A DNA stretch of 64,000 bases from a virus. Its lineage: Duplodnaviria > Caudoviricetes. Of this stretch, positions 41,073 to 62,901 are shown piece after piece. Every line of letters begins with the position of its first letter. Position 1 is the first letter of the stretch. The DNA is taken from positions 32,001 to 96,000 of the IMG/VR virus record IMGVR_UViG_2974778606_000001. One strand, 5' to 3'. The notes beneath the pieces were generated by a model, which worked only from the letters and a program-made list of their open reading frames with translations, was not told the DNA's origin and did not search any database. Position numbers and translations under genes: made by a program.

Positions 41073-41594
41073 ATGACAGTACTTCTAAGGACAATCCACG
41101 GAAGCCATCTGTATGGCCTCGCTCACGCAGGGTCCGATAAGGATATCTACGAAGTCATTGCGACTAAGCGGACTGCGCGTAAGCGAAACATTAAGCAAAC
41201 CATCGTGGATGGAGTTGACAAAACGGTCGTAGACCTGTCAACATTCATGCATATGGTTGACGAATGCGTACCTCAAGCACTTGAAGCGCTATGGACGCCG
41301 GTCGCTGAGATTGATGAAATCCACGAATTCCGGACACAATATCGAGTGAATCGCGCCAAGATGAAGGAAGTATACATTCGAACCGCTCTGAACTTTGCCA
41401 AGCAAAATGATGTTAAGCGTAGGCGTCACGCCATCCGCTTGCTTCTGAACCTTGGTGCAGCATTGGAATACGGGAAGTTTAATCCCAGACTCTCCAATAT
41501 GGATAAGTTCATTCTCCGTTCATCACTCGGAGAATCTGGAGCATATGAGGACGTTTTTCTAGGCGTCCTTGATGAAGTACAAAAGTGGGTCTGA
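41073..41594 (+). CDS. Pol-beta-superfamily nucleotidyltransferase (RlaP-like)
   Basis: HGSHLYG.....SDKD motif. Confidence 0.82.
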   Translation: MTVLLRTIHGSHLYGLAHAGSDKDIYEVIATKRTARKRNIKQTIVDGVDKTVVDLSTFMHMVDECVPQALEALWTPVAEIDEIHEFRTQYRVNRAKMKEVYIRTALNFAKQNDVKRRRHAIRLLLNLGAALEYGKFNPRLSNMDKFILRSSLGESGAYEDVFLGVLDEVQKWV

Positions 41595-46197: not shown

Positions 46198-46476
46198 ATG
46201 AGACTATTTGAACTTCATAGAGATATAGACTCCTCTGGAGTCTCTGGCACAGGCGTTGTTGCTCAAGGTGTTGAGTTTGACAATCGTCAGTGTTGTATGA
46301 CATGGTTGACGGAGTGGAACTCAGTGGCTGTCTATCCCGACATCCAGACCCTTGAAGCTATCCATGGACACGGTGGCAACACTCGTGTAGTATGGGTGGA
46401 AGGCCCGGCGACACAGAAGTATGTAAGAGTTGCTGGTAAAGACAGACCAATTCAGAGAGTTGACAAGCTCTCTTGA
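46198..46476 (+). CDS. Hypothetical protein
   Basis: 92 aa downstream of promoter. Confidence 0.75.
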   Translation: MRLFELHRDIDSSGVSGTGVVAQGVEFDNRQCCMTWLTEWNSVAVYPDIQTLEAIHGHGGNTRVVWVEGPATQKYVRVAGKDRPIQRVDKLS

Positions 46477-46562
46477 GTCATGTAGAGTAAAACGTAGATG
46501 GTCGGCAAGCAGGTAAGAGAGGAACACAGGAGCTTGAGCGACAACCCCTCCACCATCACCTT

Positions 46563-46638
46563 GCCTCTGTAGTATAGTCTGGTCTAATGCACCTGATTGT
46601 CAATCAGGAAATCGCCGGTTCAAATCCGGTCAGGGGCG
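46563..46638 (+). tRNA. tRNA-Asp(GTC)
   Basis: CCTGA-TTGTCAA-TCAGG, G73. Confidence 0.92.
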
Positions 46639-46641
46639 CAT

Positions 46642-46842
46642 ATGAAATGGGATATAGAGCTGGTATTGGAGCATCAACCGACAGGGTTTGCTCGACAGAT
46701 AATGATGATAGGTCATCCAGCAGAATCCATGTTTGATATAGTAAGAACCCTGATAGAAAACTCAGCAGAACTAGCTGACGATGTCAGGGTCACTCACCTT
46801 GAAATAAGGGAGAATAATGGCAGCGATTCGATACTGCCCTAA
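46642..46842 (+). CDS. Hypothetical protein
   Basis: ATG 3 nt after tRNA-Asp. Confidence 0.55.
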   Translation: MKWDIELVLEHQPTGFARQIMMIGHPAESMFDIVRTLIENSAELADDVRVTHLEIRENNGSDSILP

Positions 46843-48210: not shown

Positions 48211-49857
48211 ATGTCAAACGCACTTAATAACGCTGCCAAGAGTCTTAACAAGACTGCACAGACTCAGCGTGCTCGCAAGGACCAGGTCAAGAACAACGCT
48301 GGTGGATTCGTCTTCCAGGTTTCTGACCAGGCCAGGCTTGAGCGATTTCTGATTCTGGGTGTTGATGGTGGCACCTATTACGTATCTGAAGTTGACCACG
48401 CAAAGCATAACGTCGACTTCCTCAATGAGATGATTGAGCGAGACGAATCCTCTGTACTTAACACCATTGTGGACGTGTCTGTCAATGGTCGTGCGTACAA
48501 GCAGTCTCCTGCTCTGTTCGCTCTAGCCTCTGTTATTGCCCATGGCAAGGACAAGCAGGCGGTCAAGGCAGTATTCAATCGTGTCGTTCGTACAGGTACT
48601 CACCTGTATGAGTTGATGAACTACCTTACTTCACTCAATGTGGGTTGGGGTCGTTCAAAGCGAGAGATTGTTGCTTCTTGGTTTGACCGAGATGCTGACA
48701 AGCTGGCTTACCAGGCGGTCAAGTACCGTTCTCGTAAGTTTGGCGAGCAGACTTGGACGCTCCGAGATGTAATGCGTCTTTCCCACCCACGAGATGTGAA
48801 CACGTCTGTTGCAGACTTTGTTCTGGGCAAGCCTCATGACGCTATAGATGACCTTCGGGTTATCGAGGGCTTCAAGAAGATGCAGAAGGCTCAGTCAGTG
48901 GACGATGTTCACAGCGTTCTCCGTGAGTACGAGATGCTTTCATGGGAGGCAATCCCAACTCAGTTCCTCAAGGATGTGAGTGTATGGAAGCGAATCTTCG
49001 CTAACGGACAGCTTCGTGGCCAGGCTCTAGTCCGAAACATTACTCGCCTCGCGCGAATTGGTGCTTTCCAGGACATGCGCTTTGCTGCTGCTTATGCAGG
49101 ACAGCTCACGAATCAGGAGATGATTGTACAGACTCGTCTGCACCCAATCAACTTCCTGAACGCGACTGTTGTGTATAATGAAGGCCAGATGAAGACCGTA
49201 AGGGACCGATTTGGCTGGGAGCGTGAGGAGCGTGTCAAGGACTGGACGACTGAGAGTGTTATCGTAGATGCCCTCAATGAGGGATTCCACAAGGCATTCA
49301 AGGCTGTCGAGCCTGCTGGTAAGCGAACGATGCTAGCCATCGATGTTTCAGGTTCTATGAGTGCAAAGGCTAATGGTCTCGACCTTAGCTGTGCTCAGGT
49401 ATCTGCTGCAATGGCAATGACCATCGCTCGTACCGAGCCTGCTCACATCATCCGTGGCTTCACGTGTGACGGTTACAGCTATAGGAACAGTGGTCTTACT
49501 GACCTGGGTATTTCTGCCAGGACCGACCTTGCTACGGCAATGCGTAAGGTTCAGCGAAGTAACTTTGGTGGCACAGACTGTTCTCTTCCTATGGTCTGGG
49601 CAAAGCAGAATGATGTAGAGGTTGACACATTCGTCGTTATCACTGATAACGAGACGTATGCTGGCAACATTCACCCATTCCAAGCGCTGAAGGACTACCG
49701 TAAGGCAACTGGTATTGACGCAAGGCTCGCTGTTCTAGGAGTCGCATCAACTCCATTCACCATTGCGGACCCATCAGACGCAGGCATGATGGACTTCGTA
49801 GGATTTGACAGCAATGCGCCTCGTGTGCTGGCTGACTTCTCCGCAGGTCGCATCTGA
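48211..49857 (+). CDS. Ro60/Rsr-like TROVE + vWA RNA-binding protein
   Basis: NNAGGFVF, RFLILG..GGTYY, KYRSR, LHP, DVSGSM, GGTDCSLP, TDNET, GFD. Confidence 0.95.
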   Translation: MSNALNNAAKSLNKTAQTQRARKDQVKNNAGGFVFQVSDQARLERFLILGVDGGTYYVSEVDHAKHNVDFLNEMIERDESSVLNTIVDVSVNGRAYKQSPALFALASVIAHGKDKQAVKAVFNRVVRTGTHLYELMNYLTSLNVGWGRSKREIVASWFDRDADKLAYQAVKYRSRKFGEQTWTLRDVMRLSHPRDVNTSVADFVLGKPHDAIDDLRVIEGFKKMQKAQSVDDVHSVLREYEMLSWEAIPTQFLKDVSVWKRIFANGQLRGQALVRNITRLARIGAFQDMRFAAAYAGQLTNQEMIVQTRLHPINFLNATVVYNEGQMKTVRDRFGWEREERVKDWTTESVIVDALNEGFHKAFKAVEPAGKRTMLAIDVSGSMSAKANGLDLSCAQVSAAMAMTIARTEPAHIIRGFTCDGYSYRNSGLTDLGISARTDLATAMRKVQRSNFGGTDCSLPMVWAKQNDVEVDTFVVITDNETYAGNIHPFQALKDYRKATGIDARLAVLGVASTPFTIADPSDAGMMDFVGFDSNAPRVLADFSAGRI

Positions 49858-49899: not shown

Positions 49900-50040
49900 A
49901 TGATAAGCAAAGAAGAAAGAAAAGAACTAAAGCTCGCAAGGTCAAAGGCAGAACTAGTAAGAACTGTGACTAGCATCTTCCAGATGATTATTGCTTCTGC
50001 GACTCTCATCATCCTGGTCTACGTCAACTTCATGCGTTGA
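49900..50040 (+). CDS. 46-aa leaderless membrane microprotein (not in ORF track)
   Basis: TGCTATACT 6 nt before ATG; hydrophobic C-terminus. Confidence 0.65.
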   Translation: MISKEERKELKLARSKAELVRTVTSIFQMIIASATLIILVYVNFMR

Positions 50041-52288: not shown

Positions 52289-52317
52289 TTGACAGGCCAA
52301 GCAAGACACGTTAGACT
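52289..52317 (+). promoter_or_regulatory. Promoter of second tRNA cluster
   Basis: TTGACA-N17-TAGACT. Confidence 0.7.
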
Positions 52318-52361
52318 AGTAACACAGCGCAGGACGGAGCGCAGCAACTAAATCCGTTCAT

Positions 52362-52432
52362 GCCCCTATAGTCTAAGGGTAGGATACAAGATTCTCAATC
52401 TTGTGGTCGGAGTTCAACTCTCCGTAGGGGTA
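52362..52432 (+). tRNA. tRNA-Glu(CTC)
   Basis: CAAGA-TTCTCAA-TCTTG. Confidence 0.9.
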
Positions 52433-52433
52433 C

Positions 52434-52694
52434 GTGGCACCACCAAAGATACCAACTCAAATAGAAGCGAAATTAGTAGTGGCTATACTCTGTGGAGTGA
52501 TTGGCTCACTACTAGCAAGCTTTCTCATGATGGGTTGTATCGCAGAGACAAATGAAACTAGCAAGATGAAGGCATGTGTCTCTAAGGGTTATGAGTGGGT
52601 AGCAGCGCCCGGTGGTCCTGAGTGCAAGAAGCCGGTTGACATAGTGTTTCAACCAAGCTACGATAGTAACAACGAAACAGACAAGCCCCGTTAG
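52434..52694 (+). CDS. Small membrane protein
   Basis: One TM helix; GTG 1 nt after tRNA. Confidence 0.55.
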   Translation: MAPPKIPTQIEAKLVVAILCGVIGSLLASFLMMGCIAETNETSKMKACVSKGYEWVAAPGGPECKKPVDIVFQPSYDSNNETDKPR

Positions 52695-52759
52695 TCTAGC
52701 GGCCTAGGATTCCAGACTTTCAATCTGCGAGAACGTCGGTTCGAATCCGACACGGGGTA
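52685..52759 (+). tRNA. tRNA-Glu(TTC)
   Basis: Loop CTTTCAA. Confidence 0.9.
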
Positions 52760-52835
52760 CGTACAAAGTGGTCCTGTCTGATGCGCAGGTTAAATACTAT
52801 CAAGACGTTACTAGTGCGTCTGAAAGTGCCATTAT

Positions 52836-52908
52836 GCGGGTGTCGTCTAGCGGCTAAGGCCCCATCCTTACAAGATGGTCATCGGAGGTTCGAGTCCTCT
52901 CACCCGTA
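52836..52908 (+). tRNA. tRNA-Val(TAC)
   Basis: CCATC-CTTACAA-GATGG. Confidence 0.9.
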
Positions 52909-52995
52909 CGAGTCCCCGTCAGAGGCTAGAGGATGACGACCTACATTCTGACAGCAGTTGGGCACACCATAGTTAGGATAGCCACGAACTGCATT

Positions 52996-53072
52996 GGGTT
53001 TGATTGGTATGACGTTAGTGAAAGCCGACAATGGACCGCTAACCGCAGAGGGTTCGAATCCCTCCAAATCCA
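52996..53072 (+). ncRNA. Mini tmRNA-like RNA (tRNA-like domain only)
   Basis: GGGTTTG/CAAATCC acceptor with G3:U70 and A73; stemless D region; 7-bp helix; canonical T-arm. Confidence 0.6.
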
Positions 53073-53252
53073 CGTTGGAAGGTGTTGAGGTGAGAGAAAA
53101 GTTGGTCACTCAGTATCTCTGCTCATTGTGTAAGGTCTAACCAACCATCACACCAGGCACGAATCTGGCCCTTCCGTAGACTTGATGATAAAGACCCCTA
53201 AGCTGATATTCCATATCAGCCGGACACTTGGCGGTGACGCCTTTCATCATAT

Positions 53253-53327
53253 GCTCCCATAGACCAATTGGCAGGAGTCGCACGGCTTAGACCCGTGAAT
53301 GTGTCGGTTCGAATCCGACTGGGAGTA
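53253..53327 (+). tRNA. tRNA-Leu(TAG) with short variable arm
   Basis: CACGG-CTTAGAC-CCGTG; 5-nt variable loop. Confidence 0.85.
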
Positions 53328-53355
53328 CTCCATAACTACAAAGACAAGGATACAG

Positions 53356-53457
53356 GTGGCAGCCTGCCCCAAGGGTGGAAAGCACGATTGGAAGATATGG
53401 TCTGGAAAGTATCGCTGTCGTAAGTGTGGTGAAACAAGTAAGATACAGCCTGCTTAG
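53356..53457 (+). CDS. 33-aa Zn-finger microprotein (not in ORF track)
   Basis: AAGGA RBS; MAACPKGGKHDW...RCRKCG. Confidence 0.6.
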   Translation: MAACPKGGKHDWKIWSGKYRCRKCGETSKIQPA

Positions 53458-53466
53458 GTTGTTTAT

Positions 53467-53545
53467 GCGTCTGTGGTGGAATGGTAGACACGCTGGTCTT
53501 AGGAACCAGTTCTTCGGAGTGCAGGTTCGAGTCCTGTCAGACGTA
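53467..53545 (+). tRNA. tRNA-Leu(TAG)
   Basis: CTGGT-CTTAGGA-ACCAG with variable arm. Confidence 0.92.
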
Positions 53546-53598
53546 CTTTGACTGTCATCCGGAGTCAGTCAAATGCATATAGGGTCGCTCCCTATATG

Positions 53599-53726
53599 AG
53601 GAACATAGTTTAAATGGGAGAACGGCGAAATGCGCTGTCGAACGGGAGATGCTGCCGAGCTAAAGGTGGGTTCTTTGCTAGTAGATAACAGAGTAGTCAG
53701 TGTCGGTTCGAATCCGGCTGTTCCGC
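53599..53726 (+). ncRNA. tRNA-like RNA with about 55 extra nt in place of the anticodon arm
   Basis: GGAACA/TGTTCC acceptor, D-arm, GTCGG-TTCGAAT-CCGGC T-arm. Confidence 0.6.
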
Positions 53727-53865
53727 TAGCCTGCGACGACGTTTCGATGTAGGTCCCCTAGGGTTTGCGCAGACCCGAAGGGCATTCGAGAAAGGTGCCT
53801 AGCTAGGTCCGTCTATCAATAGGGTGAGAGTTTTTCGCGGTTTTCCTCATAATTAAACCGTGCTT

Positions 53866-53937
53866 GGTCCTTTAGCTGAGATAGATTAGCGATAGCCTGA
53901 AAAGCTTTAGAGGTCGGTGCGATACCGTCAGGGACCA
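53866..53937 (+). tRNA. tRNA-Phe(GAA), T-loop TGCGATA
   Basis: Loop CTGAAAA; GGTCCTT/AGGGACC. Confidence 0.82.
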
Positions 53938-54067
53938 CAATGAATGGATGACTCATCTGATTTCGAATAGGATGTTGAATCCATGCAGGAGGCCCGGTAT
54001 GCTAGCTAGGGTAACGGATGTTGCATGACGGCTTCGGACATCCAAAAACAAACAGGAAACCGTCCCC

Positions 54068-54138
54068 TCCGTAGTGGTGTAACGGTAACATACCTCCTTG
54101 CCAAGGAGGCGTCGCGGGTTCGATTCCCGTCTACGGGA
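54068..54138 (+). tRNA. tRNA-Gly(GCC), atypical A73
   Basis: CCTCC-TTGCCAA-GGAGG. Confidence 0.88.
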
Positions 54139-54143
54139 CTCTT

Positions 54144-54218
54144 GCCCCAGTATTGGCCCGGCCTTCTAAGCCAGAGGCGCATAATGGAAAGATGCAGGTT
54201 CGAATCCTGTCTGGGGTG
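54144..54218 (+). tRNA. D-armless tRNA-Arg(TCT)-like RNA
   Basis: GCCCCAG/CTGGGGT acceptor, loop CTTCTAA, intact T-arm, no D-arm. Confidence 0.55.
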
Positions 54219-54219
54219 C

Positions 54220-54390
54220 GTGAAGGTGAGAAAAATGGTCGTATATTACGACGGTGTCAGCGAAGAAGAGGAAGACAAGCTTATGGAAGCTGTAGAAAAT
54301 ATCCTCTGTCCGAATGCTGAAGAAGAGAATCATGAATGCAGAATGCATCTGATGACCTGGCAGACCGTTGACGACTACAACGATGAATGA
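54220..54390 (+). CDS. Hypothetical acidic microprotein
   Basis: GTG 1 nt after tRNA-like RNA, or ATG 54235. Confidence 0.55.
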   Translation: MKVRKMVVYYDGVSEEEEDKLMEAVENILCPNAEEENHECRMHLMTWQTVDDYNDE

Positions 54391-54498
54391 AAATGCTCGG
54401 TAGAAAAGTCTGGAGAGGCCAGACGTTCGAGGACTCTCCGCTTAAAAACAAAATTTGGAGGCGTCGTGAACGAAGAGACTGGCAGCGAGAATGGAGTC

Positions 54499-54657
54499 AT
54501 GACAGACTTGGTTCTGGCAGGAATTCTTCAGATTGAAGAGATAGAAGAAAATGGTGACATTCTACTATCTCTTGACTGGGAAAAGCTTTACGAATACGAT
54601 TCAAACATCTACTACTACCTCAGAGAAGCTGAGCTAAACGGTGAGATGATACAATAG
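54499..54657 (+). CDS. Hypothetical protein
   Basis: GGAG before ATG (MTDLVLAG). Confidence 0.55.
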   Translation: MTDLVLAGILQIEEIEENGDILLSLDWEKLYEYDSNIYYYLREAELNGEMIQ

Positions 54658-54661
54658 GGAC

Positions 54662-54817
54662 ATGAAGACCTATGAAATCGCAGTTAGCCTGTTGCTGTCA
54701 GTAGAAGCTCCTGACAAATCAGACGCACTTGAAGCAGTCAAGGACACGTTTGGTGAAGGTGAAATCTGCGGAATAGATATCAAGGACATCGAGGTTGAAG
54801 TTGTCGATGAACTTTGA
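54662..54817 (+). CDS. 51-aa hypothetical protein (not in ORF track)
   Basis: MKTYEIAVSL...VEVVDEL* fills gap. Confidence 0.6.
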   Translation: MKTYEIAVSLLLSVEAPDKSDALEAVKDTFGEGEICGIDIKDIEVEVVDEL

Positions 54818-54818
54818 T

Positions 54819-54995
54819 ATGCTGTCTAACGTACCAGGTGTTGAGTTCTTCCTTAAGTGCACATTTTGCCCGGAAGAGTCAGACGGTAACTTGACAGTAG
54901 AGCTTGAACCTGGTATGTTTGTACCAATGCCAATCTGTGAAGATTGCTTGGAGCAGCAAGCCAAGAACTTCAATATGATTGAAAGTCCTGAATAA
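54819..54995 (+). CDS. Small Zn-binding protein
   Basis: CTFC...CEDC. Confidence 0.6.
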   Translation: MLSNVPGVEFFLKCTFCPEESDGNLTVELEPGMFVPMPICEDCLEQQAKNFNMIESPE

Positions 54996-55002
54996 GGACT
55001 AT

Positions 55003-55077
55003 GGGCGGTTAGTGTTAATGGTAGCACGAGTGCTTTGCACGCATTAAGCAGGGGTTCGAATCCCCTACTGTCCACCA
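55003..55077 (+). tRNA. tRNA-Ala(TGC), CCA encoded
   Basis: G3:U70; loop TTTGCAC. Confidence 0.93.
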
Positions 55078-55157
55078 GAACTGGGTTTGATTCAACAAAG
55101 GCTTAGGCTTAGAGGTGTACCACTCGGTTCTTAACTTCCTGCGCAGGGAGGTGCAAA

Positions 55158-55232
55158 ATGACACCAGAAAGAGCATTGGCAATTGGAATTCTAGCACTAG
55201 TGCTACTTGCAATTTTGTTTGCCGTTCTGTAA
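55158..55232 (+). CDS. 24-aa hydrophobic peptide (not in ORF track)
   Basis: GGAGG RBS; MTPERALAIGILALVLLAILFAVL*. Confidence 0.65.
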   Translation: MTPERALAIGILALVLLAILFAVL

Positions 55233-55347
55233 AAATATTGGCTGGCCGATACGAACCCCATCGTATCCTTGCCCGAGGGTTAGGGACCAGCATTTATTAT
55301 GCCCGAGCTAGGTACTTAGGAGTCGGGAGAATGTAACCCTAGCGTAT

Positions 55348-55422
55348 GCTCCAGTCGCACAGTCTGGTAGTGCAACGGACTCTTAATCCGTGTGGACGTC
55401 GGTTCAAATCCGACCTGGAGTA
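55348..55422 (+). tRNA. tRNA-Lys(CTT)
   Basis: ACGGA-CTCTTAA-TCCGT. Confidence 0.92.
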
Positions 55423-55430
55423 CATAAACC

Positions 55431-55458
55431 ACCCAATCCCTAGTGGATTGGGTTTTTT
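55431..55458 (+). terminator. Intrinsic terminator
   Basis: ACCCAATCC-CTAGT-GGATTGGGT-TTTTT. Confidence 0.85.
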
Positions 55459-55476
55459 CATGCTACAATAATTAGT

Positions 55477-56025
55477 ATGACTACACCAAAGAAGTACACC
55501 CCAAGACCAGGTGACATTGGACTGACCCGAATCGGTGGCCTTACAGGCGTTCTAGTGGGCCTAGGGCAATTCATCTTGAGGGATGCGAGCAGATACACCC
55601 ACGTCTTTGTTGTTTTGGACAACGAGGAAGTCATAGAGGCGATGCCAGCTGGAGCAATCATCAGCCCGCTGGACAAGTATGCTGGAACTACTAAGTATGG
55701 AAGTCCACTGGCAGCTTACCTAGACATCAAGTTGACACAGGAGCAGCGAGACGCTATCGTAAGAGAAGCCCGGCAGCTAGAGGGAGTTCCATATAGCTTC
55801 CTTGACTACGTTGCCTTGGCACTAGAACGTGTTGGCTTGCACTGGAAGTGGATTGAGAATAGAGTCACTTCTAGCAAGCATCTAATCTGTTCCCAATTGG
55901 CCGATGAAGCCTATAAGCGTGCAGGTGTTCATCTGTTCGAAGATGGTAGGCTATCTCAAAAGGTCACTCCTGGGGACTTGACGTACGTAGGATTTGACCA
56001 GAGGTACGATGAAGAAGTGCTCTGA
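55477..56025 (+). CDS. Permuted NlpC/P60 (YiiX/YebB-like) hydrolase, leaderless
   Basis: PGDI, YTH, IEA, G.PY, ICSQL, TPGDL; TGCTACAAT 7 nt before ATG. Confidence 0.82.
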   Translation: MTTPKKYTPRPGDIGLTRIGGLTGVLVGLGQFILRDASRYTHVFVVLDNEEVIEAMPAGAIISPLDKYAGTTKYGSPLAAYLDIKLTQEQRDAIVREARQLEGVPYSFLDYVALALERVGLHWKWIENRVTSSKHLICSQLADEAYKRAGVHLFEDGRLSQKVTPGDLTYVGFDQRYDEEVL

Positions 56026-56512
56026 TTGTAAAAGAGACAAGGCAGAGAGCGAGTTTTACAAGACCTCCAAAACTGGAGGTCTTCGCTCTTACTGCAAGGA
56101 ATGTAGTAAGGTACGTAGTAGAAAATACCTGAAAGAAAACCCGGAACGAGAAAAACAGCATCAGCAAACCTATAGAGATAAGCACAGAGAACAACTCAAT
56201 GCATGGTTTGTTGAGTGGAGAAGGAAAAACAATTCAAGAGCTAAAGAAATTTCTGCAAAGGCGAGGGCCAAAAGAAAGGAAGCTCTAGGAGATTTTGAAC
56301 TTCCTGTTGGGTTCTGGGACGTACTGCTTGACTTCTACGAGGGAGCTTGCCTCTCATGTGGAACTGATGGTAAGCTAGAGCTAGACCACGTTGTTCCACT
56401 AGCAAAAGGTGGGACTCATTCCGTAGACAACTTTCAGATTCTTTGTCGCTCATGTAATGCTAGGAAGGCTACAAAGTCTACTGATTACAGGAAGGGAAGA
56501 ATCTTCAAGTGA
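56009..56512 (+). CDS. HNH endonuclease
   Basis: CLSCG...DHVVPLAKGG.H...N....CRSCN. Confidence 0.88.
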   Translation: MKKCSDCKRDKAESEFYKTSKTGGLRSYCKECSKVRSRKYLKENPEREKQHQQTYRDKHREQLNAWFVEWRRKNNSRAKEISAKARAKRKEALGDFELPVGFWDVLLDFYEGACLSCGTDGKLELDHVVPLAKGGTHSVDNFQILCRSCNARKATKSTDYRKGRIFK

Positions 56513-56706
56513 GTACGATGAAGTGCCTGGGCTGTAAGAAAGAAAAGCCCAGAAGTGATTTTGGAACGACCGGTACGGCGAAGGGCTTGTGCAAGTCCTG
56601 TCGCTCTGGTAGAGTGAGTAGCACAGGCAAGGGAAAGAGGTCAGGAAGCTGGCTCGATGGCGTTGGAGATGCTATCGGTGACTTCATCGAGGCGATTCTA
56701 CCTTGA
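56509..56706 (+). CDS. Small Zn-finger protein
   Basis: CLGC...CKSC. Confidence 0.6.
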   Translation: MSTMKCLGCKKEKPRSDFGTTGTAKGLCKSCRSGRVSSTGKGKRSGSWLDGVGDAIGDFIEAILP

Positions 56707-56993
56707 CTAGAACTCAACTACTTGCTATCCTAGACAGGAAGGCAAAGCTAGCGAAGAGAAACATGTCAGCCGCTAATCAGCGAGATGACCGAGTTGAGAC
56801 TCGTGCATATGCTGTTGAGCTGACTGAGACAAATGCATTCATTCAGGCACTGAAAAGACTCAAGAGCCTAGATTAGGAAGTAATGTATATTTACTACAAG
56901 TCCAGGGAACTGGCTTCTAAGTTGGGATGGTTCTTTCTCGGAAAGTACCGTGAGCTGAAGATGCGAAACATGTAAAATGCCCGAAAGGGCTAT

Positions 56994-57070
56994 TCCCACG
57001 ATACACCTGTGTGGCTCGGTGTAGCAGACTGTTAATCTGCCGGTCGTTGGTTCGACTCCAACCGTGGGAG
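56994..57070 (+). tRNA. tRNA-Asn(GTT), unusual 5-bp D-stem
   Basis: GCAGA-CTGTTAA-TCTGC; ACACC/GGTGT. Confidence 0.85.
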
Positions 57071-57413
57071 CTGGCCGCCAAAGCTTAGGGAGATAGCTAC
57101 CCTAGGCAAGGATAAACCGGATGATAGCTTGTGATATTCTAGACAGGTCATAAGTGAAGACAAGGTGGAAACCCAGAGGCAAACTGGGGCACGGCCAACC
57201 ACTTATAGCTTTACTAACAGCACGTAGATTGTCTGTGTACCTTTGGTTTTACGGCTTTTTAAATCTTAGGAGCAGGCATGAAGAAGGGTTTAGCGGCCCT
57301 ACCCAATCAAGAGGAAGCCGTTGAGATTGGTCGTGCTAGAGTAAATAAGCGGCTGTTGGGACCGCTTCAAGCAAGAGACACCGCTCAAAGGTGGAGTGCT
57401 GCATCCCTTCCTA

Positions 57414-57485
57414 TGGCCTATAGCTTAACGGCAGAGCGATTGACTGTTAATCAATTAGGTGCTGGTTCGAATCCAGCTAGGTCAG
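57414..57485 (+). tRNA. tRNA-Asn(GTT)
   Basis: ATTGA-CTGTTAA-TCAAT. Confidence 0.92.
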
Positions 57486-57519
57486 CTCGCACAGAGATTG
57501 TATCAACGTGCTCTCGTCA

Positions 57520-57544
57520 GACCCCGGCACTAGTCGGGGTTTTT
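57520..57544 (+). terminator. Intrinsic terminator
   Basis: ACCCCGGC-ACTA-GTCGGGGT-TTTT. Confidence 0.82.
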
Positions 57545-57578
57545 GGCGTATGGTATCCTTGCATAGAAGGAGGATACT

Positions 57579-57746
57579 ATGATAAAGTTCGTTTCCGGAC
57601 TGAAGCCCGGTGATGTTACAGGGTTTGGCACTGTTGTTGCCTCGCAACGAGGTCTTGACGGCAGAACCTACACCTTGGTACTATCAGAGGGTAGAGAAGT
57701 TCAACTCAACCGATTCAGACTAGTTAGGACTAGACGTGAGTTTTAA
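57579..57746 (+). CDS. 55-aa SH3-like microprotein (not in ORF track)
   Basis: AGGAGG RBS; LKPGDV...GTVV. Confidence 0.65.
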   Translation: MIKFVSGLKPGDVTGFGTVVASQRGLDGRTYTLVLSEGREVQLNRFRLVRTRREF

Positions 57747-58098
57747 GGAAACCATCAGGGCCAAGGGTTCCGAGTACGCCAAGAAGGGCGTCAAGGCTGC
57801 TGGTTCTGGTGCAAAGAGCGTTGCTCTTTCCGGCATCATGGCGAGCGGTAAGGGAATCAAGGCTGGCTGGGAGCTTGGCAAGAACTATGCTCAGACAAAG
57901 AAGTATGCTGACCTCAAGGTTGGCGACTTCATTGAGCAGGGCCAGGTCGTGCAGAACATGCAGAATTTTTCAGACCGTAGGATGCGTGAAATCACTGTGA
58001 CTGGTGAGCATACCGAAACCCTTACCGTAAAGGGTGGAGACCGAGTAAAGGTCATCACTGCTGTTCAGTGTGGTAAGCTTGCTGTAGACTTCGAGTAA
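57736..58098 (+). CDS. Hypothetical protein
   Basis: 120 aa; DLKVGDFI. Confidence 0.7.
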   Translation: MSFKETIRAKGSEYAKKGVKAAGSGAKSVALSGIMASGKGIKAGWELGKNYAQTKKYADLKVGDFIEQGQVVQNMQNFSDRRMREITVTGEHTETLTVKGGDRVKVITAVQCGKLAVDFE

Positions 58099-58119
58099 TC
58101 GAAGGGCCTTCGGGCCAAT

Positions 58120-58191
58120 GTCCCTATAGTTTAGAGGATAGAACGTCACTCTCCTAAAGTGAAGACGCAGGTTCGAGTCCTGCTGGGGATA
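58120..58191 (+). tRNA. tRNA-Arg(CCT)
   Basis: TCACT-CTCCTAA-AGTGA. Confidence 0.92.
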
Positions 58192-58192
58192 C

Positions 58193-58441
58193 ATGGACGA
58201 TAAAGTATATCTAGTTTTTCAATGGACAGACAACGATGACCCCGATTACGAAACGGATATCGAATATCTGGGGGTCGCAATGTCAGAGAAGCGAGCGAAG
58301 GAAGTCATCGACGCCTTTAATCCTGGTCCTGATTGGGAAAAGAATGGCGAATATGAATGGCGCTGGACCGAAAAGCAGTCCAATGGCTGGACACGTTGGG
58401 CCGAGACTGGTGTGACATACACCCCTCTTGACATCCTGTGA
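58193..58441 (+). CDS. Hypothetical protein
   Basis: ATG 1 nt after tRNA; resembles 58526 ORF (KVYLV...G...SEKRAKE). Confidence 0.7.
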   Translation: MDDKVYLVFQWTDNDDPDYETDIEYLGVAMSEKRAKEVIDAFNPGPDWEKNGEYEWRWTEKQSNGWTRWAETGVTYTPLDIL

Positions 58442-58525
58442 GTTGACAAGAGGCCCAGCGCAGAGTAGAGTAGTCAACAGATGGACACCTCCTAGTGTCT
58501 AGAGTACACATCAATAGGAGGAAAA

Positions 58526-58681
58526 ATGAAGGTATGGCTCATCGTTGACGGTTGCGGATGCGGCTGGTACGATGGAGAAGTAATCAAGGGCGCTTACACT
58601 TCTGAGAAGAAGGCAAAGGAAGCACTTGATAACATTGAAGATGGCTACTACCTTGACATCAAGGAGCTGGTAGTCGAATAA
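58526..58681 (+). CDS. 51-aa hypothetical protein (not in ORF track)
   Basis: AGGAGG RBS; MKVWLIV...GAYTSEKKAKE; TTGACA-N17-TAGAGT at 58443-58471. Confidence 0.7.
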   Translation: MKVWLIVDGCGCGWYDGEVIKGAYTSEKKAKEALDNIEDGYYLDIKELVVE

Positions 58682-58695
58682 AGCCGAAAGGCTAT

Positions 58696-58768
58696 GGGGA
58701 TGTAGCTCAATTGGAAGAGCAGTTCAATGGCATTGAACAGGTTGTGGGTTCGAATCCCATCTTCTCCA
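58696..58768 (+). tRNA. tRNA-Ala(GGC)
   Basis: G3:U70; GTTCA-ATGGCAT-TGAAC. Confidence 0.9.
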
Positions 58769-58939
58769 CGCAGTTTTATCAGTTTCTGGCACAACATGAA
58801 ACTGAACGAGGCAGGTTCTAGCAGACCTAATTGGTAGCAAGGTGTAGCCCGTACACCCCTTGCAGCGTACAGACCACATGTGCTAGCATGGTACGTATAT
58901 TAGGGAATGTGCGGCTGGTCCCCAATCATTCCCAACCAA

Positions 58940-59012
58940 GCTCCGGTAGCTCAGTTGGTAGAGCAGGCGGCTCTTAACCGTCGTGTCGCTGGTTCAAGTC
59001 CAGTTCGGAGTA
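58940..59012 (+). tRNA. tRNA-Lys(CTT)
   Basis: GGCGG-CTCTTAA-CCGTC. Confidence 0.92.
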
Positions 59013-59139
59013 CAAAACGAGGTTGCAAACTCGTTCAATCATGTTGGGGTTCGATTCCCTCTGGTGAAACAACATGGTGTAATTGAGAGGAAAAGGCGGG
59101 GGCACATAATAAAGCCCTGCTGTCTAGCCACTCTTTTAT

Positions 59140-59214
59140 GGTCCGGTCGCACAGTCTGGTAGTGCAATTGACTTTTAATCTTTGAGGACGTGGGTTCGAA
59201 TCCCACCCGGACCA
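59140..59214 (+). tRNA. tRNA-Lys(TTT), weak anticodon stem
   Basis: Loop CTTTTAA; two U-U mismatches in stem. Confidence 0.82.
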
Positions 59215-59215
59215 C

Positions 59216-59374
59216 ATGGGTAATAAGGTATGGAATAAGGGTGATAAGGTCATCCGAAACAATAACACTGATGCTGGTACTGTTGAGAAGCAAGACGGCC
59301 GGTGGGTGATAGTTACCCTTGACACTGGTGGCCAGAAGCGTCTTGGTGCCAACGATTTGAAGCGAAGGCGTTGA
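59216..59374 (+). CDS. 52-aa SH3-like microprotein (not in ORF track)
   Basis: WNKGDKVI...GTVE...V.V.LDTG; ATG 1 nt after tRNA. Confidence 0.65.
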   Translation: MGNKVWNKGDKVIRNNNTDAGTVEKQDGRWVIVTLDTGGQKRLGANDLKRRR

Positions 59375-59526
59375 TGGCATTCAAAGTACATGATAAGGTA
59401 AAAGTAGTCAGTGGTCCTCACGCTGGCAAGACTGGTAAGGTCTTGGCAGTCACAGGAAAGACCTGTACAGTGAAGACAAAGGAAGGTACTTATCACATCC
59501 ATGAGAACGACCTCAGAGGGAACTGA
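59374..59526 (+). CDS. 50-aa KOW microprotein (not in ORF track)
   Basis: FKVHDKVKVVSGPHAGKTGKV. Confidence 0.75.
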   Translation: MAFKVHDKVKVVSGPHAGKTGKVLAVTGKTCTVKTKEGTYHIHENDLRGN

Positions 59527-59534
59527 GGTTTTAT

Positions 59535-59607
59535 CTCCTCTTAGCTCAATGGATAGAGCGACAGGCTTCGAACCTGTGCGTAGGGAGTTCGATTCTCTCA
59601 GGGGAGG
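59535..59607 (+). tRNA. tRNA-Arg(TCG)
   Basis: ACAGG-CTTCGAA-CCTGT. Confidence 0.9.
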
Positions 59608-59665
59608 CTTGACATAGCCAACATGGCATGTCAGACTAAAGGCAGGCAGACGGACAAGGAGAACA

Positions 59666-60031
59666 GTGGTTCAAGGTCCATGCATTCTGTGGACCGGCAA
59701 TACTATTGAAACACATGGCAATACCTACGGGATTTTGCCCGGTAAGAAGATAGTCCTTGCCCACAGAGTTGCTTATGAGAAGAAGCATGGGAAGATTCCT
59801 GACGGTCTAGTAATTGACCACTTGTGCAGGAACGGACTGTGTGTTAACGTTAAGCATCTAGAGGCAGTCACCAATGTAGAAAATGTAATGCGTGGTGAAG
59901 GTGCTCCAGCAAAGAATGCTAGAAAGACTCATTGTCTGAGGGGCCACGCGCTTACTCCAGACAATATTTACAATCGCAGAAACGGTCGAAGAGACTGTAA
60001 ACTCTGCAACAAAATAAGGCGTGACAAGTAA
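59666..60031 (+). CDS. HNH endonuclease
   Basis: CILWTG...AHRVAY...IDHLCRN..CVN..HLE.VT..EN. Confidence 0.88.
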   Translation: MVQGPCILWTGNTIETHGNTYGILPGKKIVLAHRVAYEKKHGKIPDGLVIDHLCRNGLCVNVKHLEAVTNVENVMRGEGAPAKNARKTHCLRGHALTPDNIYNRRNGRRDCKLCNKIRRDK

Positions 60032-60241
60032 GCGGTCGGACAAGGCTATGGAGTGTGAGAGTAGTTCAAGCGGTGGTAACTTAAATGCCCACTTAATGAT
60101 GCTCAACAAAACTGTGGGATGCGAGTGGACCAGCCTTACTTGACACAAGCGGGGAACATGAGTATGCTAACCTCTAAGAGGAACGACGACTACAAGTTCC
60201 CCGCTTTTCAATAAACAAATCTAGTAACTAGGAGTTACATA

Positions 60242-61030
60242 ATGAGTTTTCTGCGTAAGATGAAGAACTTCACGCCTGCCGCTCACCTGTCTCCCAAGAA
60301 GACAGTTGCGCTGACGCGAATCAATTCTGGTCAGCCTGCTGCAAACGTGAGTCTCATCAAGCAGAACGGCGTCTCCTTCGAGAAGAAGGTTGCTAGCGCT
60401 GTGTCTCTTCAGAAGAGCATGGGCGTTGAGAATCGATTTGATGTCATTGCTCTGATTGACGAGTCTGGCTCAATGGGCGGACTTTTCCGCGATGGAACTG
60501 TTCAGTCTCTTGCAGAGCGTGCTCTAGCATGGACAGCCGGTGTGGATGCGGATGGCATGGCCCCTGTTGGTGGCTTTGCTTCTGGCTTCAAGTGGCACGG
60601 AGAAATCAGTCTGTCCAACGTTATGGGATGCGCTGCAAATTGGCGTACCTGGGGCAGCACTGACCTGACTGCTGGCCTGAAGGCGGCTCTGGAAGTTGCA
60701 AAGGGTGCTGACAATCCTGTCTACCTCTTTGTTATCACTGATGGCTCTCCTGATGACCGAGGCTCTGCCGTTAAGCTTATCAAGGAGATGTCTCAGTATC
60801 CTATCTTCATCAAGTTCTTGCTAGTTGGGAATGACCGATGGGGCAAGGAGTTCCTTGAGTACGTGGACGACCTTGAGCAGCACGAGCCTGGTGGTCGACT
60901 GTTTGACAACGTCGACACTCAGCACATCGTGAACGTCTCTCGCGTCAGCGACGACGATTTCAACAAGGCGATGACTGAGGAAGTTGCATCATCCGTTGCT
61001 GCAATGAAGCAGGTTGGCCTGGTTCGTTGA
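60242..61030 (+). CDS. vWA protein (TerF-like)
   Basis: DESGSM..LF.DG.VQ.L.ER, ITDG, RLFDN. Confidence 0.85.
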   Translation: MSFLRKMKNFTPAAHLSPKKTVALTRINSGQPAANVSLIKQNGVSFEKKVASAVSLQKSMGVENRFDVIALIDESGSMGGLFRDGTVQSLAERALAWTAGVDADGMAPVGGFASGFKWHGEISLSNVMGCAANWRTWGSTDLTAGLKAALEVAKGADNPVYLFVITDGSPDDRGSAVKLIKEMSQYPIFIKFLLVGNDRWGKEFLEYVDDLEQHEPGGRLFDNVDTQHIVNVSRVSDDDFNKAMTEEVASSVAAMKQVGLVR

Positions 61031-61263
61031 GTTGACACAACTCACTACATGATGTAGAGTAGTACTCATAACCAGCTCAAGCTTGGCCGAAAGGCCCGGC
61101 GGCGTTCAGGGAAGCTGGGATGTGTGATAGAGTGAACGTACTCACACAAAGGCCACAGTAGAAAGTCCCCGAACTGGTCTTGACACATTGCAGGGCAAGC
61201 GCTACAGTCGAAGAGGTGGAGCGAAAGCAGAGAAGCCGATGACTCGACCAAAAGCGCTTATAT

Positions 61264-61333
61264 GGCAGCAGGGCGCTGGTGTGCCAATAGCTCTCATAAG
61301 GCTAAGGGGAAGGTTCGAAACCTTCTGTTGCTA
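61264..61333 (+). tRNA. tRNA(CAT), Met or Ile2
   Basis: TAGCT-CTCATAA-GGCTA. Confidence 0.8.
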
Positions 61334-61336
61334 CAA

Positions 61337-61405
61337 AGCGGATTAGTGAAACGGTATCACGCGAGGCTCATAATCTCGTATTCCTGTTCGAATCAGGGTC
61401 CGCCC
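61337..61405 (+). tRNA. tRNA(CAT), initiator-like 1:72 mismatch, atypical
   Basis: CGAGG-CTCATAA-TCTCG; short T-stem. Confidence 0.7.
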
Positions 61406-61444
61406 CCACTTATAATAAGCAGTACAACCAACAAGGAGAATAAA

Positions 61445-61576
61445 ATGCCTGGTCCCCTCTCTACCCCGAACGCTTCCAAGCCGATGACGCAGAAGGAGCT
61501 TCGCGAGCGGGTTGAGAACCTGATGCGCGGTAAGGTCCCTACGACTGGCAAGACTGCCAAGGTTAAGGGCCACTGA
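61445..61576 (+). CDS. Small basic protein
   Basis: AAGGAG RBS. Confidence 0.6.
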   Translation: MPGPLSTPNASKPMTQKELRERVENLMRGKVPTTGKTAKVKGH

Positions 61577-61591
61577 CCTCAAGGAGGTTAA

Positions 61592-61774
61592 ATGGCTGAC
61601 AAGTACCGAATCAAGGAACATCTCGAAACGGTATACGATAAGGACAAGGTTCAAGAGAGAATCGATGCTCTGCAAAGCATAGTTGACAACCGCAAGCGCG
61701 GTGGTAAGATTATCGCAGAGCACAAGCAGACGGGACGGAAGCACCAGTGGCTTCTATGGTACGTCAAGCAGTGA
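61592..61774 (+). CDS. Hypothetical protein
   Basis: AAGGAGGT RBS. Confidence 0.7.
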   Translation: MADKYRIKEHLETVYDKDKVQERIDALQSIVDNRKRGGKIIAEHKQTGRKHQWLLWYVKQ

Positions 61775-61790
61775 GGCCCTTCGGGGTCAA

Positions 61791-61872
61791 GCATGAGCGG
61801 CGAAGTTGGAGAGTCGCGGTGGTCTGTAAAACCATTTCTTCGGGTGAGTCAGTTCGAATCTGGCCTCATGCA
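61791..61872 (+). tRNA. tRNA-Tyr(GTA)
   Basis: GTGGT-CTGTAAA-ACCAT with variable arm. Confidence 0.9.
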
Positions 61873-62061
61873 CGCAACAGGCAAAGTCATACCTTAACTA
61901 GCTAGGGGTCCTGGAGAAAAGTGACTGGCTGAGCGGGAAGCGATTCCCCTTCTGGGCTGACAACCGCGACTGTCAATCCGTGCGCGGCACACGGAAAAGC
62001 TATCGAGTTTACCCATCAGGGCGACGGTCCAAAATGCGTAATCAGATAGCATGCCCCATCT

Positions 62062-62133
62062 GCATGTAAGCCAGGGATAAGCTAGGCGGGCCTGTAAAGC
62101 CCTACCTCGATGGTTCGAATCCGTCTACATGCA
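62062..62133 (+). tRNA. tRNA-Tyr(GTA), short variable arm
   Basis: GGGC-CTGTAAA-GCCC; GCATGTA/TACATGC. Confidence 0.75.
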
Positions 62134-62136
62134 CTT

Positions 62137-62218
62137 GCAGGTGATAGGCCAATGGATGGCTCAAACGCTTAAGCGTGGATATCTGAGAAAGCACGGTTCG
62201 ATTCCGGCATCATCTGCT
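62137..62218 (+). ncRNA. tRNA-like RNA with 9-bp acceptor stem and no normal anticodon loop
   Basis: GCAGGTGAT/ATCATCTGC; GCCA/TGGC D-arm; CGG-TTCGATT-CCG. Confidence 0.55.
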
Positions 62219-62221
62219 CTT

Positions 62222-62293
62222 GGTGGCTATAGCATAAAAGTAATGTTCAAGGCTGTGAACCTTGAGAAGAGGGGGCGGTACCCTCTAGTCACC
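62222..62293 (+). tRNA. tRNA-His(GTG), G-1:C73, aberrant T-loop
   Basis: CAAGG-CTGTGAA-CCTTG; T-loop GGCGGTA. Confidence 0.8.
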
Positions 62294-62494
62294 CTTTGCA
62301 GGCTAGAATCTACTCTATGGTTAGACTAAGGTAGACTATGAAAAGGAGTCGTACGCTCCTAGCACCCCTCTCCAGTAGGTGTCTGCAAGAACTGGAAAAC
62401 TTAAGCTGCCGTAGCTCAAGCACCTGCCTATAAGCGGGAAAGAGCGTCTATTCGTGGAGAATAGAAGATGCTGAATTAACGGCCGGTGGCGCAT

Positions 62495-62570
62495 GGGGTT
62501 GGTAGCTCAATTGGACAAGAGCGCTGCGTTGTGGTCGCAGTGGTTGCGGGTTCGAGTCCCGTCCTTCCCA
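62495..62570 (+). tRNA. tRNA-His(GTG), A73
   Basis: CTGCG-TTGTGGT-CGCAG. Confidence 0.85.
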
Positions 62571-62571
62571 C

Positions 62572-62901
62572 ATGAATAGAATGAGAAAGGCGGTCGGTGT
62601 TGCTAGCCTTCTTCTCGTTCTTGTTGGATGCGGTAGCGATAACAAGGATAGTCTTACAACTAGAGACAAAGCGTATGTAAATACTCTGAGAGAAGAAATC
62701 ACTGGCGTCAAAGATATGAGCGACACCAAGCTAGTAGCCCTAGGCAGAGAAGCTTGTGCAAGCTCAGACAATGGTGATAACTTCAATGAGACCGTTCGCA
62801 AAGTAAGCAACTATGGTTTGACAGAAAGTGATTCTGCTTATCTGACAGGAGCTGCATTCGCTGCTTATTGTCCAAGCAACGTCCCAAAAATCGGAAGCTG
62901 A
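62572..62901 (+). CDS. Lipoprotein (DUF732-like)
   Basis: Lipobox LVGC; D..LV.LG..AC...AA..AYCP. Confidence 0.8.
   Translation: MNRMRKAVGVASLLLVLVGCGSDNKDSLTTRDKAYVNTLREEITGVKDMSDTKLVALGREACASSDNGDNFNETVRKVSNYGLTESDSAYLTGAAFAAYCPSNVPKIGS

Follow-up and report, generated by a model that had tools for sequence, protein, structure and literature searches.

The stretch of DNA analysed here (the window, 64,000 nucleotides) comes from a Streptomyces phage of the BE1 cluster, whose genome of 132.9 kb carries ~41 tRNAs. We placed tRNA ends with the Rfam tRNA model, which ends at the discriminator (N73), and with ARAGORN, which adds C74. At four tRNAs on the + strand of the window, N73 and C74 are followed at once by ATG or GTG (in the junctions below, a slash marks the 3′ side of C74). 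The first is tRNA-Glu(ctc) (52362..52433; N73 = 52432, C74 = 52433; Rfam 63.3 bits; ARAGORN), which abuts the GTG of an 86-aa membrane protein gene (52434..52694; junction GGGT.A.C/GTG) that matches phrog_15436 at 1e-40, shows conservation in 12 relatives beginning at codon 2, with in-frame N-terminal indels, and has a dN/dS of 0.15. A promoter-like TTGACA-17-TAGACT, a consensus match only, lies 45 nt upstream of this tRNA on the same strand (52289..52317) and implies that tRNA and ORF may be co-transcribed. The second is tRNA-Arg(cct) (58120..58192; N73 = 58191, C74 = 58192; Rfam 66.6 bits; ARAGORN), followed by the ATG of an 82-aa ORF (58193..58441; junction GGAT.A.C/ATG) whose next in-frame start comes only at codon 30; its dN/dS is 0.17, and its resemblance to DUF7336 falls just below threshold (24.8 bits against a 25-bit cut-off).

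The third, tRNA-Lys(ttt) (59140..59215; N73 = 59214, C74 = 59215; Rfam 57 bits; ARAGORN), lies downstream of a further promoter-like consensus match (59083-59110) and precedes a 52-aa ORF (59216..59374; junction GACC.A.C/ATG) in which ATG and GTG are interchanged among relatives. The end of this ORF is overlapped by a KOW-motif ORF (59371-59526; KOW at 8e-8), after which comes tRNA-Arg(tcg). The fourth, tRNA-His(gtg) (62496..62571; N73 = 62570, C74 = 62571; Rfam 57.2 bits; ARAGORN), runs into the ATG of a 109-aa lipoprotein gene (62572..62901; junction TCCC.A.C/ATG; Pfam DUF732 at 3e-14) with a signal peptide, an LVGC lipobox and a dN/dS of 0.15. In relatives, a 'tRNA-Phe(gaa)' takes the place of tRNA-His before the same lipoprotein ORF. 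The Anedea record annotates the lipoprotein start 9 nt too late.

Two further loci are imperfect. Downstream of a promoter-like consensus match (TTGACA-17-TAGAGT, 46460-46488), tRNA-Asp(gtc) (46563..46639, + strand; N73 = 46638, C74 = 46639; Rfam 63.4 bits; ARAGORN) is followed by a 66-aa ORF (46642..46842, + strand; junction GGGC.G.C/AT-ATG), and the three nucleotides that the initial annotation counted between discriminator and ATG are C74 and the dinucleotide AT, which would give the mRNA a 2-nt leader and makes the arrangement near-leaderless. In phage Anedea, a homologue of this ORF is 261 nt away from the tRNA, with another ORF in front of it, and in two relatives (G001 and G002) other ORF families (fam14 and fam16) begin exactly at position 75 behind tRNA-Asp. 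The second locus is a degenerate tRNA-Arg(tct)-like element (54144..54219, + strand; G73 = 54218, C74 = 54219), which retains an intact acceptor stem and T-arm, just passes the Rfam threshold (29.5 vs 29 bits) and draws no ARAGORN call; an intact tRNA-Arg(tct) stands in its place in one relative (L003). The GTG of a 56-aa ORF (54220..54390, + strand) follows its G73-C74 at position 75. This case is ambiguous because the frame is already open from 54025 and a rival start, ATG 54235, is preceded by the SD-like GAAGGTGAG. In codons 2-5 of this ORF, all three changes among three phages are synonymous third-position changes, a weak hint that these codons may be coding. Rfam places the discriminators of all six elements where the initial annotation had put them (52432, 58191, 59214, 62570, 46638 and 54218), and ARAGORN agrees except for the element at 54218; the recurrent order of discriminator, C and start codon described there holds for Glu, Arg(cct), Lys and His by Rfam, ARAGORN and the sequence itself, and is ambiguous for the Arg-like element.

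To count this arrangement, we defined a junction ORF as one of at least 40 aa whose start codon lies exactly at tRNA position 75. Eight of the 41 tRNAs in the genome are followed by one, compared with a mean of 0.62 and a maximum of 3 per offset between +1 and +60; four of the eight, at Leu-gag, Leu-caa, Ser-gct and Gln-ttg, fall outside the window, and ~80% of the phage tRNAs have no such ORF behind them. At exact junctions the spacer between C74 and the start codon is 0 nt and the bases 5′ of the start are the tRNA acceptor stem, which leaves, as first noted, no room for a free Shine-Dalgarno (SD) site. There is likewise no room for a promoter between tRNA and ORF, and the promoter-like consensus matches at Glu, Lys and Asp lie just upstream of the tRNAs. 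A promoter inside the tRNA was rejected, as no TANNNT (-10-like) hexamer was found at -12 to -7 of the junction start codons. The stop codon of the Glu ORF (52692-52694) falls within tRNA-Glu(ttc), and in 54% of tRNAs positions 8-10 form a stop triplet, usually U8-A9-G10 (TAG). We considered these stops as a signal and rejected them as incidental packing, because the number of open frames of at least 50 codons that enter a tRNA is similar in the three frames (40, 44 and 28).

The initial annotation had proposed counting the spacing across related genomes, and our comparison covered 627 tRNAs in 17 genomes or contigs. It drew on directly retrieved tRNA regions of ten relatives; a search for related loci with a poorly conserved 129-aa ORF as query had returned only 2. 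Junction ORFs follow 80 of the 627 tRNAs at position 75, whereas every other offset from -10 to +60 holds 0-16. Starts are scarce or nearly absent from +4 to +8, and SD-led starts climb from ~+9. In 13.4% of tRNAs position 75 holds ATG or GTG, whereas positions downstream hold one of the two at a rate of 3.8% each. Of the 84 such codons at position 75, 79 open an ORF of at least 40 aa, against 29% of those at +10 to +60; for TTG at position 75 the figure is only 1 of 30.

Among the 80 junction ORFs we distinguish 29 families, and the junction is retained both when the ORF is exchanged and when the tRNA is (the lipoprotein gene behind His or 'Phe'). Three unrelated ORFs each are found behind Arg-cct, Lys-ttt and Asp, and two each behind Gln-ttg, Leu-gag, Leu-caa and Leu-taa. 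The first base of the start codon varies only between A and G, as seen within five families. N-termini are conserved from codon 1-2, matches include DUF732, PHROG and KOW entries, and dN/dS ranges from 0.07 to 0.48 in 11 families, indicating purifying selection. Homologues that lie away from tRNAs carry GGAGG, AGGAG or GAGG 6-10 nt upstream, and about two thirds of the ordinary genes of the region have an SD. An internal SD-led start, which would have spoken against the junction codon, was not found before the conserved N-terminus of the Glu ORF, and in three relatives SD-led homologues of the lipoprotein line up with the junction Met and not with Met4. The junction ORFs are genuine phage genes, and their junction is exact, recurrent and selected.

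A rationale for this exactness is offered by the host. Mapping of 5′-monophosphate ends in S. coelicolor places the tRNA 3′ processing cut immediately after C74 (PMC4681348, text and Table S4); by our own reading of Table S4, ~43 of 44 S. coelicolor rows have the 5′-P site just 3′ of C74 ('GTAC/ag', 'C/CA'), and none of the mapped host tRNAs has ATG or GTG at position 75. In this host 53 of 65 tRNA genes are without CCA (PMC4681348), while C74 is encoded in 40/41, 350/353 and 116/117 phage tRNA genes and a complete CCA is rare. P. acnes makes the same cut after C74, yet is without an obvious tRNase Z (PMC3848588). The initial annotation had RNase Z cutting near the discriminator; cutting is borne out by the host data, the site is after C74, and tRNase Z SCO2547 is a candidate for the enzyme. 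With the cut there and not at the discriminator, the mRNA would be entirely leaderless, instead of carrying a one-nucleotide C leader. No Lactamase_B_2 or PolyA_pol match, as expected of an RNase Z or a CCA-adding enzyme, was found in the phage, so host enzymes must act; a 173-aa nucleotidyltransferase (41073-41594) was rejected as a CCA enzyme, being RlaP-like. Efficient translation of mRNAs with a 5′-terminal ATG or GTG, already invoked in the initial annotation, is known in actinobacteria (PMC4633059; PMC4681348, which lists 264 leaderless mRNAs). In mycobacteria, leaderless initiation occurs at ATG and GTG only (PMC4633059), with which the use of ATG or GTG and the exclusion of TTG at position 75 agree.

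Together, these data suggest, with a probability that we put at roughly 0.7, that processing of a co-transcribed tRNA-ORF RNA frees leaderless mRNAs whose start codon is tRNA position 75. The tRNA and the ORF would share one transcript, for which several loci offer a promoter-like site shortly before the tRNA, and the host tRNA 3′-processing endonuclease would cut after C74, as it does on Streptomyces' own tRNA precursors. The tRNA would be left with an N73-C74 end for the host CCA-adding enzyme to complete, and the downstream fragment would carry a 5′ monophosphate and begin with the start codon, which Streptomyces ribosomes would translate without an SD site. The tRNA gene would then serve as a removable leader, and the supply of the protein's mRNA would be tied to tRNA maturation. 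The cut site, mapped on host tRNAs, and the capacity for leaderless translation are carried over from published host data; co-transcription, the same cut on phage precursors and translation of 5′-monophosphate leaderless RNA are our inference. A search for RNA covering the stretch found no run, and four runs that we looked at consisted of contigs, probably of DNA, in which related phages were mixed with tRNAs from other organisms. That tRNA maturation yields translatable mRNAs, as originally proposed, is supported by the position-75 peak, the ATG/GTG rule, the swaps, the SDs on copies elsewhere and the dN/dS values.

An alternative is that the position-75 ORFs are real but are translated from the uncut tRNA-mRNA precursor, with the ribosome loading beside the folded tRNA or using a G-rich acceptor strand as a makeshift SD, and that the flush arrangement is simply maximal packing without tRNA overlap. 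Phage genomes are indeed tightly packed, and certain tRNAs have a G-rich run in the acceptor 3′ strand (GGGG in Glu and Arg-cct) at a distance of 3-4 nt from the start codon. However, that spacing is too short for an SD, the acceptor stem would be paired in a folded precursor, and the strands of His and Lys (CCTTCCC and CCGGACC) contain no SD-like run; an SD hidden in the acceptor strand was rejected on these grounds. Packing would also place starts between +1 and +8 or in slight overlap with the tRNA, offsets that are nearly empty, and it leaves the exclusion of TTG unexplained. We therefore regard translation from the precursor as unlikely.

Still less probable, in our judgement, is that the junction is the scar of small-gene insertion or exchange, in which recombination or a mobile cassette targets tRNA 3′ ends and expression is independent of processing. 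tRNA 3′ ends are classic recombination targets, and this general knowledge favours the idea, as do the unrelated ORFs that replace one another behind the same tRNA and the HNH endonuclease genes scattered through the tRNA array. Insertion does not, however, account for a boundary that always coincides with a start codon opening the frame of a conserved protein, for the A/G interchange at the first base of that codon or for the SD that copies elsewhere have acquired; it is moreover compatible with, and not opposed to, selection for processing-dependent expression. Chance or faulty ORF calling, with no expression from the junction codons, is very improbable, and the statistics contradict it. Small ORFs do invite over-calling, and SEA-PHAGES annotators favour the longest ORF without tRNA overlap (such calls occur in Anedea), but 8 junctions against 0.62 expected per offset in the genome, 79 of 84 open ORFs against 29%, dN/dS well under 1, conserved N-termini and the alignment of SD-led homologues to the junction Met all stand against it.

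The flush junction does not extend to phages at large. In other viral contigs, sampled neutrally (trigger C74 + TTT), only 2 junction ORFs accompanied 394 C74-only tRNAs, ~115 of which were the trigger tRNAs themselves, and there was no peak; no junction ORF was found in mycobacteriophage Bxz1 or in Vibrio phage KVP40, all of whose tRNAs encode CCA. A universal phage rule is ruled out by these results. An ATG-triggered sample gave a local peak of 24 ORFs at position 75, although this sample is biased by its trigger, and in the BE2 phage Belfort a junction ORF lies behind 2 of 31 tRNAs. Because the junction is rare in the neutral sample, we conclude that it is a lineage habit and no general rule.

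Our literature search found no paper describing phage ORFs flush with tRNAs as leaderless mRNAs made by processing. The closest parallel is the tRNA punctuation of animal mitochondria, reportedly described by Ojala, Montoya and Attardi in 1981 and referred to in PMC4633059. There too, ORFs abut tRNA genes in one transcript (for the phage, presumably), and RNase P and RNase Z cut out the tRNAs, freeing mRNAs whose 5′ end lies at the start codon or beside it and whose translation involves no SD. The phage differs in its bacterial host, its many promoter-like sites, its use of only ~20% of its tRNAs in this way, a probable cut after C74 and not N73, SD-led genes alongside and the absence of polyadenylation that completes stop codons. 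tRNA-like structures also act as processing signals that define mRNA ends in plant mitochondria, where such t-elements are said to have been described by Forner et al. in 2007, and in Haloferax. The Arg-like element at 54144-54219 would be of the t-element type, whereas most of the phage elements are functional-looking tRNAs with a start codon flush with the cut.

The leaderless mRNAs that arise at actinobacterial transcription starts (PMC4633059; PMC4681348) would share with the phage messages the 5′-terminal ATG or GTG, the lack of an SD and efficient translation in these hosts, but their 5′ end is made by RNA polymerase (triphosphate) and not by cleavage (a predicted monophosphate). The phage itself appears to have such transcription-initiated genes, with TGNTAYAAT and a gap of 6-7 nt before ATGs at 49900, 54662 and 55477. 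E. coli MazF also makes leaderless mRNAs by an endonucleolytic cut (Vesper et al. 2011, as cited in PMC4681348); unlike the arrangement proposed here, it is a stress toxin that cuts at ACA, with specialised ribosomes proposed and no link to tRNA maturation.

If our reading is true, these phages would hold the bacterial-virus equivalent of the tRNA punctuation of mitochondria, and leaderless mRNAs would have a second origin, in RNA processing instead of transcription start. The junctions would provide evidence from within the genome for the unusual cut of actinobacteria after C74, suggest a simple annotation rule (call the ATG or GTG at tRNA position 75) and, for Streptomyces engineering, point to tRNA-flanked ORFs as a compact design for SD-independent messages. 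They may also offer one rationale for the small genes among the tRNA genes of some large actinophages. Streptomyces phages of the BE type, together with a few unrelated lineages of uncultured phages, probably use a mitochondrion-like punctuated expression in which a tRNA gene is also a removable leader: a single cut by the host after C74 would both mature the tRNA and make a leaderless mRNA, and the output of small proteins (membrane proteins, a lipoprotein and KOW-type proteins) would be tied kinetically to tRNA processing and would not depend on SD sites.

Megablast assigns the window to the Streptomyces BE1-cluster phages, with phage Anedea as the closest record (~92-94% identity), and the phage genome spans 132,885 bp with terminal repeats, of which the window is bases 32001-96000. 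Across the genome ARAGORN calls a tmRNA and 41 tRNA genes, 33 of the latter within the window, with small ORFs interspersed. C74 is encoded in nearly all phage tRNA genes (40/41, 350/353 and 116/117), and a full CCA is rare. Directly upstream of base +1, the phage tRNAs have a YYAT consensus in common (for example at 52357-52361 and 59135-59139); across all tRNA genes T occupies -1 in 71% and A occupies -2 in 66%, with G almost absent from -1 to -4, which is presumably the leader context for RNase P. Three further matches to the tRNA model that ARAGORN does not call, at 53866-53937 (44 bits), 62062-62133 (32 bits) and 62223-62293 (45.6 bits), may represent tRNA-like elements of the array or tRNAs that are degenerate or unusual. 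The window also encodes a 173-aa nucleotidyltransferase (41073-41594) that is RlaP-like, of the RNA-repair-associated Pol-beta family, rather than a classical CCA-adding enzyme, and its gene lies near that of a Ro-like protein (48211-49857).

Within this array, several ORFs begin flush with a tRNA. The Rfam tRNA model has the discriminator as its last position, and its matches stop at 52432, 58191, 59214, 62570, 46638 and 54218, as the initial annotation had placed these 3′ ends, and ARAGORN draws two unpaired 3′ bases, N73 and C74. Read from the sequence, four start codons directly follow C74 as proposed: GTG 52434 behind tRNA-Glu (86 aa), ATG 58193 behind tRNA-Arg(cct) (82 aa), ATG 59216 behind tRNA-Lys (52 aa) and ATG 62572 behind tRNA-His (109 aa). 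The ORF behind tRNA-Asp (66 aa) also starts close to its tRNA, with AT between C74 and ATG 46642, a spacing of 2 nt. The sixth case, an Arg-like element at 54144-54219, is a marginal tRNA match (29.5 bits in Rfam) with an intact acceptor stem and T-arm; its tRNA-like 3′ end at 54218 holds, and the start proposed at GTG 54220 is ambiguous because its reading frame is already open further upstream and the Shine-Dalgarno (SD)-like GAAGGTGAG precedes ATG 54235. None of the five other ORFs has an in-frame alternative start with an SD near its N-terminus, save the lipoprotein behind tRNA-His (Met4). Outside the window lie four further exact junctions, at Leu-gag, Leu-caa, Ser-gct and Gln-ttg. For three of the junction ORFs, the GenBank annotation of Anedea already sets the start directly against the tRNA, without comment. 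The tRNA-His itself (62496-62571) has two T-T acceptor-stem mismatches and A73, and in relatives a tRNA called Phe(gaa) takes its place with the same lipoprotein gene behind it.

The junction, a start codon at tRNA position 75 that opens an ORF of ≥40 aa, is concentrated at a single offset. It occurs in 8/41 tRNAs of this genome, and the next 60 offsets hold a mean of 0.62 such ORFs each (maximum 3). We extended the census to whole tRNA regions from ten BE1 relatives and the BE2 phage Belfort, to part of Anedea and to four distant metagenomic contigs that bear tRNA arrays. Here the junction was found in 80/627 tRNAs (4-8 per BE1 genome), with 0-16 at other offsets; hardly any fall at +4 to +8, and starts with an SD appear from about +9. 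Position 75 is ATG or GTG in 13.4% of tRNAs versus 3.8% per position elsewhere, and such a codon opens an ORF of ≥40 aa in 79 of 84 cases, compared with 29% at +10 to +60. When position 75 is TTG (n=30), only one such ORF follows.

The 80 junction ORFs group into 29 families, of which ~25 are credible. In the 11 families large enough for an estimate, dN/dS is 0.07-0.48. The ORF behind tRNA-Glu encodes a conserved membrane protein (phrog_15436 match) that is conserved from codon 2 onward, with N-terminal length differences in frame. The ORF behind tRNA-His encodes a DUF732 lipoprotein, and its homologues in three relatives lie away from a tRNA with AAGGAAG upstream; their single Met aligns to the junction Met and not to Met4. 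At its other end (52636-52694), the Glu-associated ORF shares its last 10 nt, including the TAG stop at 52692-52694, with tRNA-Glu(ttc), and a promoter-like TTGACA-17-TACGAT lies within its 3′ end. Were a read-through transcript cut by RNase P, this mRNA would lose its stop codon; most relatives do not keep the overlap. A 51-aa stand-alone KOW-motif protein is encoded at 59371-59526 (Pfam 8e-8), and a KOW/SH3-like GDxVxxxxGxxKG pattern is common to many 45-78-aa junction ORFs in relatives, which may form a large group of small paralogues dispersed through the tRNA array.

Host data bear on how such mRNAs could arise. In the 5′-monophosphate mapping of Romero et al. (PMC4681348), the processing sites in Table S4 include GTAC|ag, GCAC|gc, CTAC|tc and C|CA, and by coordinate reading ~43/44 of its S. 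coelicolor rows have the site directly after C74; the same study reports 264 leaderless mRNAs in S. coelicolor. In mycobacteria, a 5′-end ATG or GTG is necessary and sufficient for leaderless initiation and TTG is unused (Shell et al. 2015, PMC4633059). Promoter-like sites (TTGACA-17-TAGACT and similar) lie closely upstream of tRNA-Glu, Lys and Asp, and no promoter-like sequence fits between tRNA and ORF. We infer that tRNA and ORF are co-transcribed from a putative upstream promoter, that phage precursors are cut after C74, and that the released RNA, with a 5′ monophosphate and AUG or GUG first, would be translated as a leaderless mRNA. The initial annotation had likewise proposed that a tRNA cut releases the mRNA, placing it near the discriminator and assigning it to RNase Z. 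The host data instead put the cut after C74, so that no C leader would remain, and RNase Z is at most a candidate for the enzyme because P. acnes makes the identical cut with no obvious tRNase Z (PMC3848588). In the phage itself, neither an RNase Z-like homologue nor one of a class II CCA enzyme was found.

Transcription initiation is probably a second source of leaderless mRNAs in this phage, as suggested by several genes without an SD, among them those for a 182-aa peptidase and HNH endonucleases, that have an extended -10 box (TGNTAYAAT, TATGAT or TATACT) 6-7 nt 5′ of the ATG. Such start codons lie at 49900, 54662 and 55477 in the window and at 8459, 9968, 10784 and 16159 of the phage locus L001, and -10 box spacings of 5-8 nt give 22 matches versus 9-13 for other spacings.

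Junction ORFs are unevenly distributed among phages. Belfort has two, and none were found in Vibrio phage KVP40, whose tRNAs all encode CCA, or in mycobacteriophage Bxz1, which has a dense array of the C74 type. Pattern scans of IMG/VR returned other unrelated contigs (29-62% G+C) with nearly all tRNAs of the C74 type and 2-4 junction ORFs each, including a GlcNAc glycosyltransferase, 2OG-Fe(II) oxygenases and a HAD hydrolase. Six IMG/VR loci of uncultured phages with no relation to this one (L122, L143, L084, L115, L170 and L092; 29-59% G+C) each carry 3-4 ORFs at position 75, with enzymes of up to 328 aa and nearly all tRNAs of the C74 type. A neutrally triggered sample showed no position-75 peak, with 2 junction ORFs per 394 C74-only tRNAs, a count that includes ~115 trigger tRNAs themselves; the junction is therefore a trait of certain lineages rather than a general one. 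Our full-text literature search, incomplete in coverage, found no description of tRNA-abutting leaderless genes in phages or bacteria.

Where the junction occurs, it is kept while the genes behind it change. Each of Arg-cct, Lys-ttt, Asp, Gln-ttg, Leu-gag, Leu-caa and Leu-taa has mutually unrelated ORFs at its junction, ORFs are also swapped between L122 and L143, and the lipoprotein gene stands behind either tRNA-His or the putative tRNA-Phe. Within five families the first base of the ORF varies by A/G exchange only. Homologues of junction ORFs located elsewhere in other genomes almost always have a site of the GGAGG, AGGAG or GAGG type 6-10 nt upstream, and roughly two in three ordinary genes of the region carry one too. 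Judged from these natural controls, the tRNA junction behaves as a functional substitute for the ribosome-binding site.
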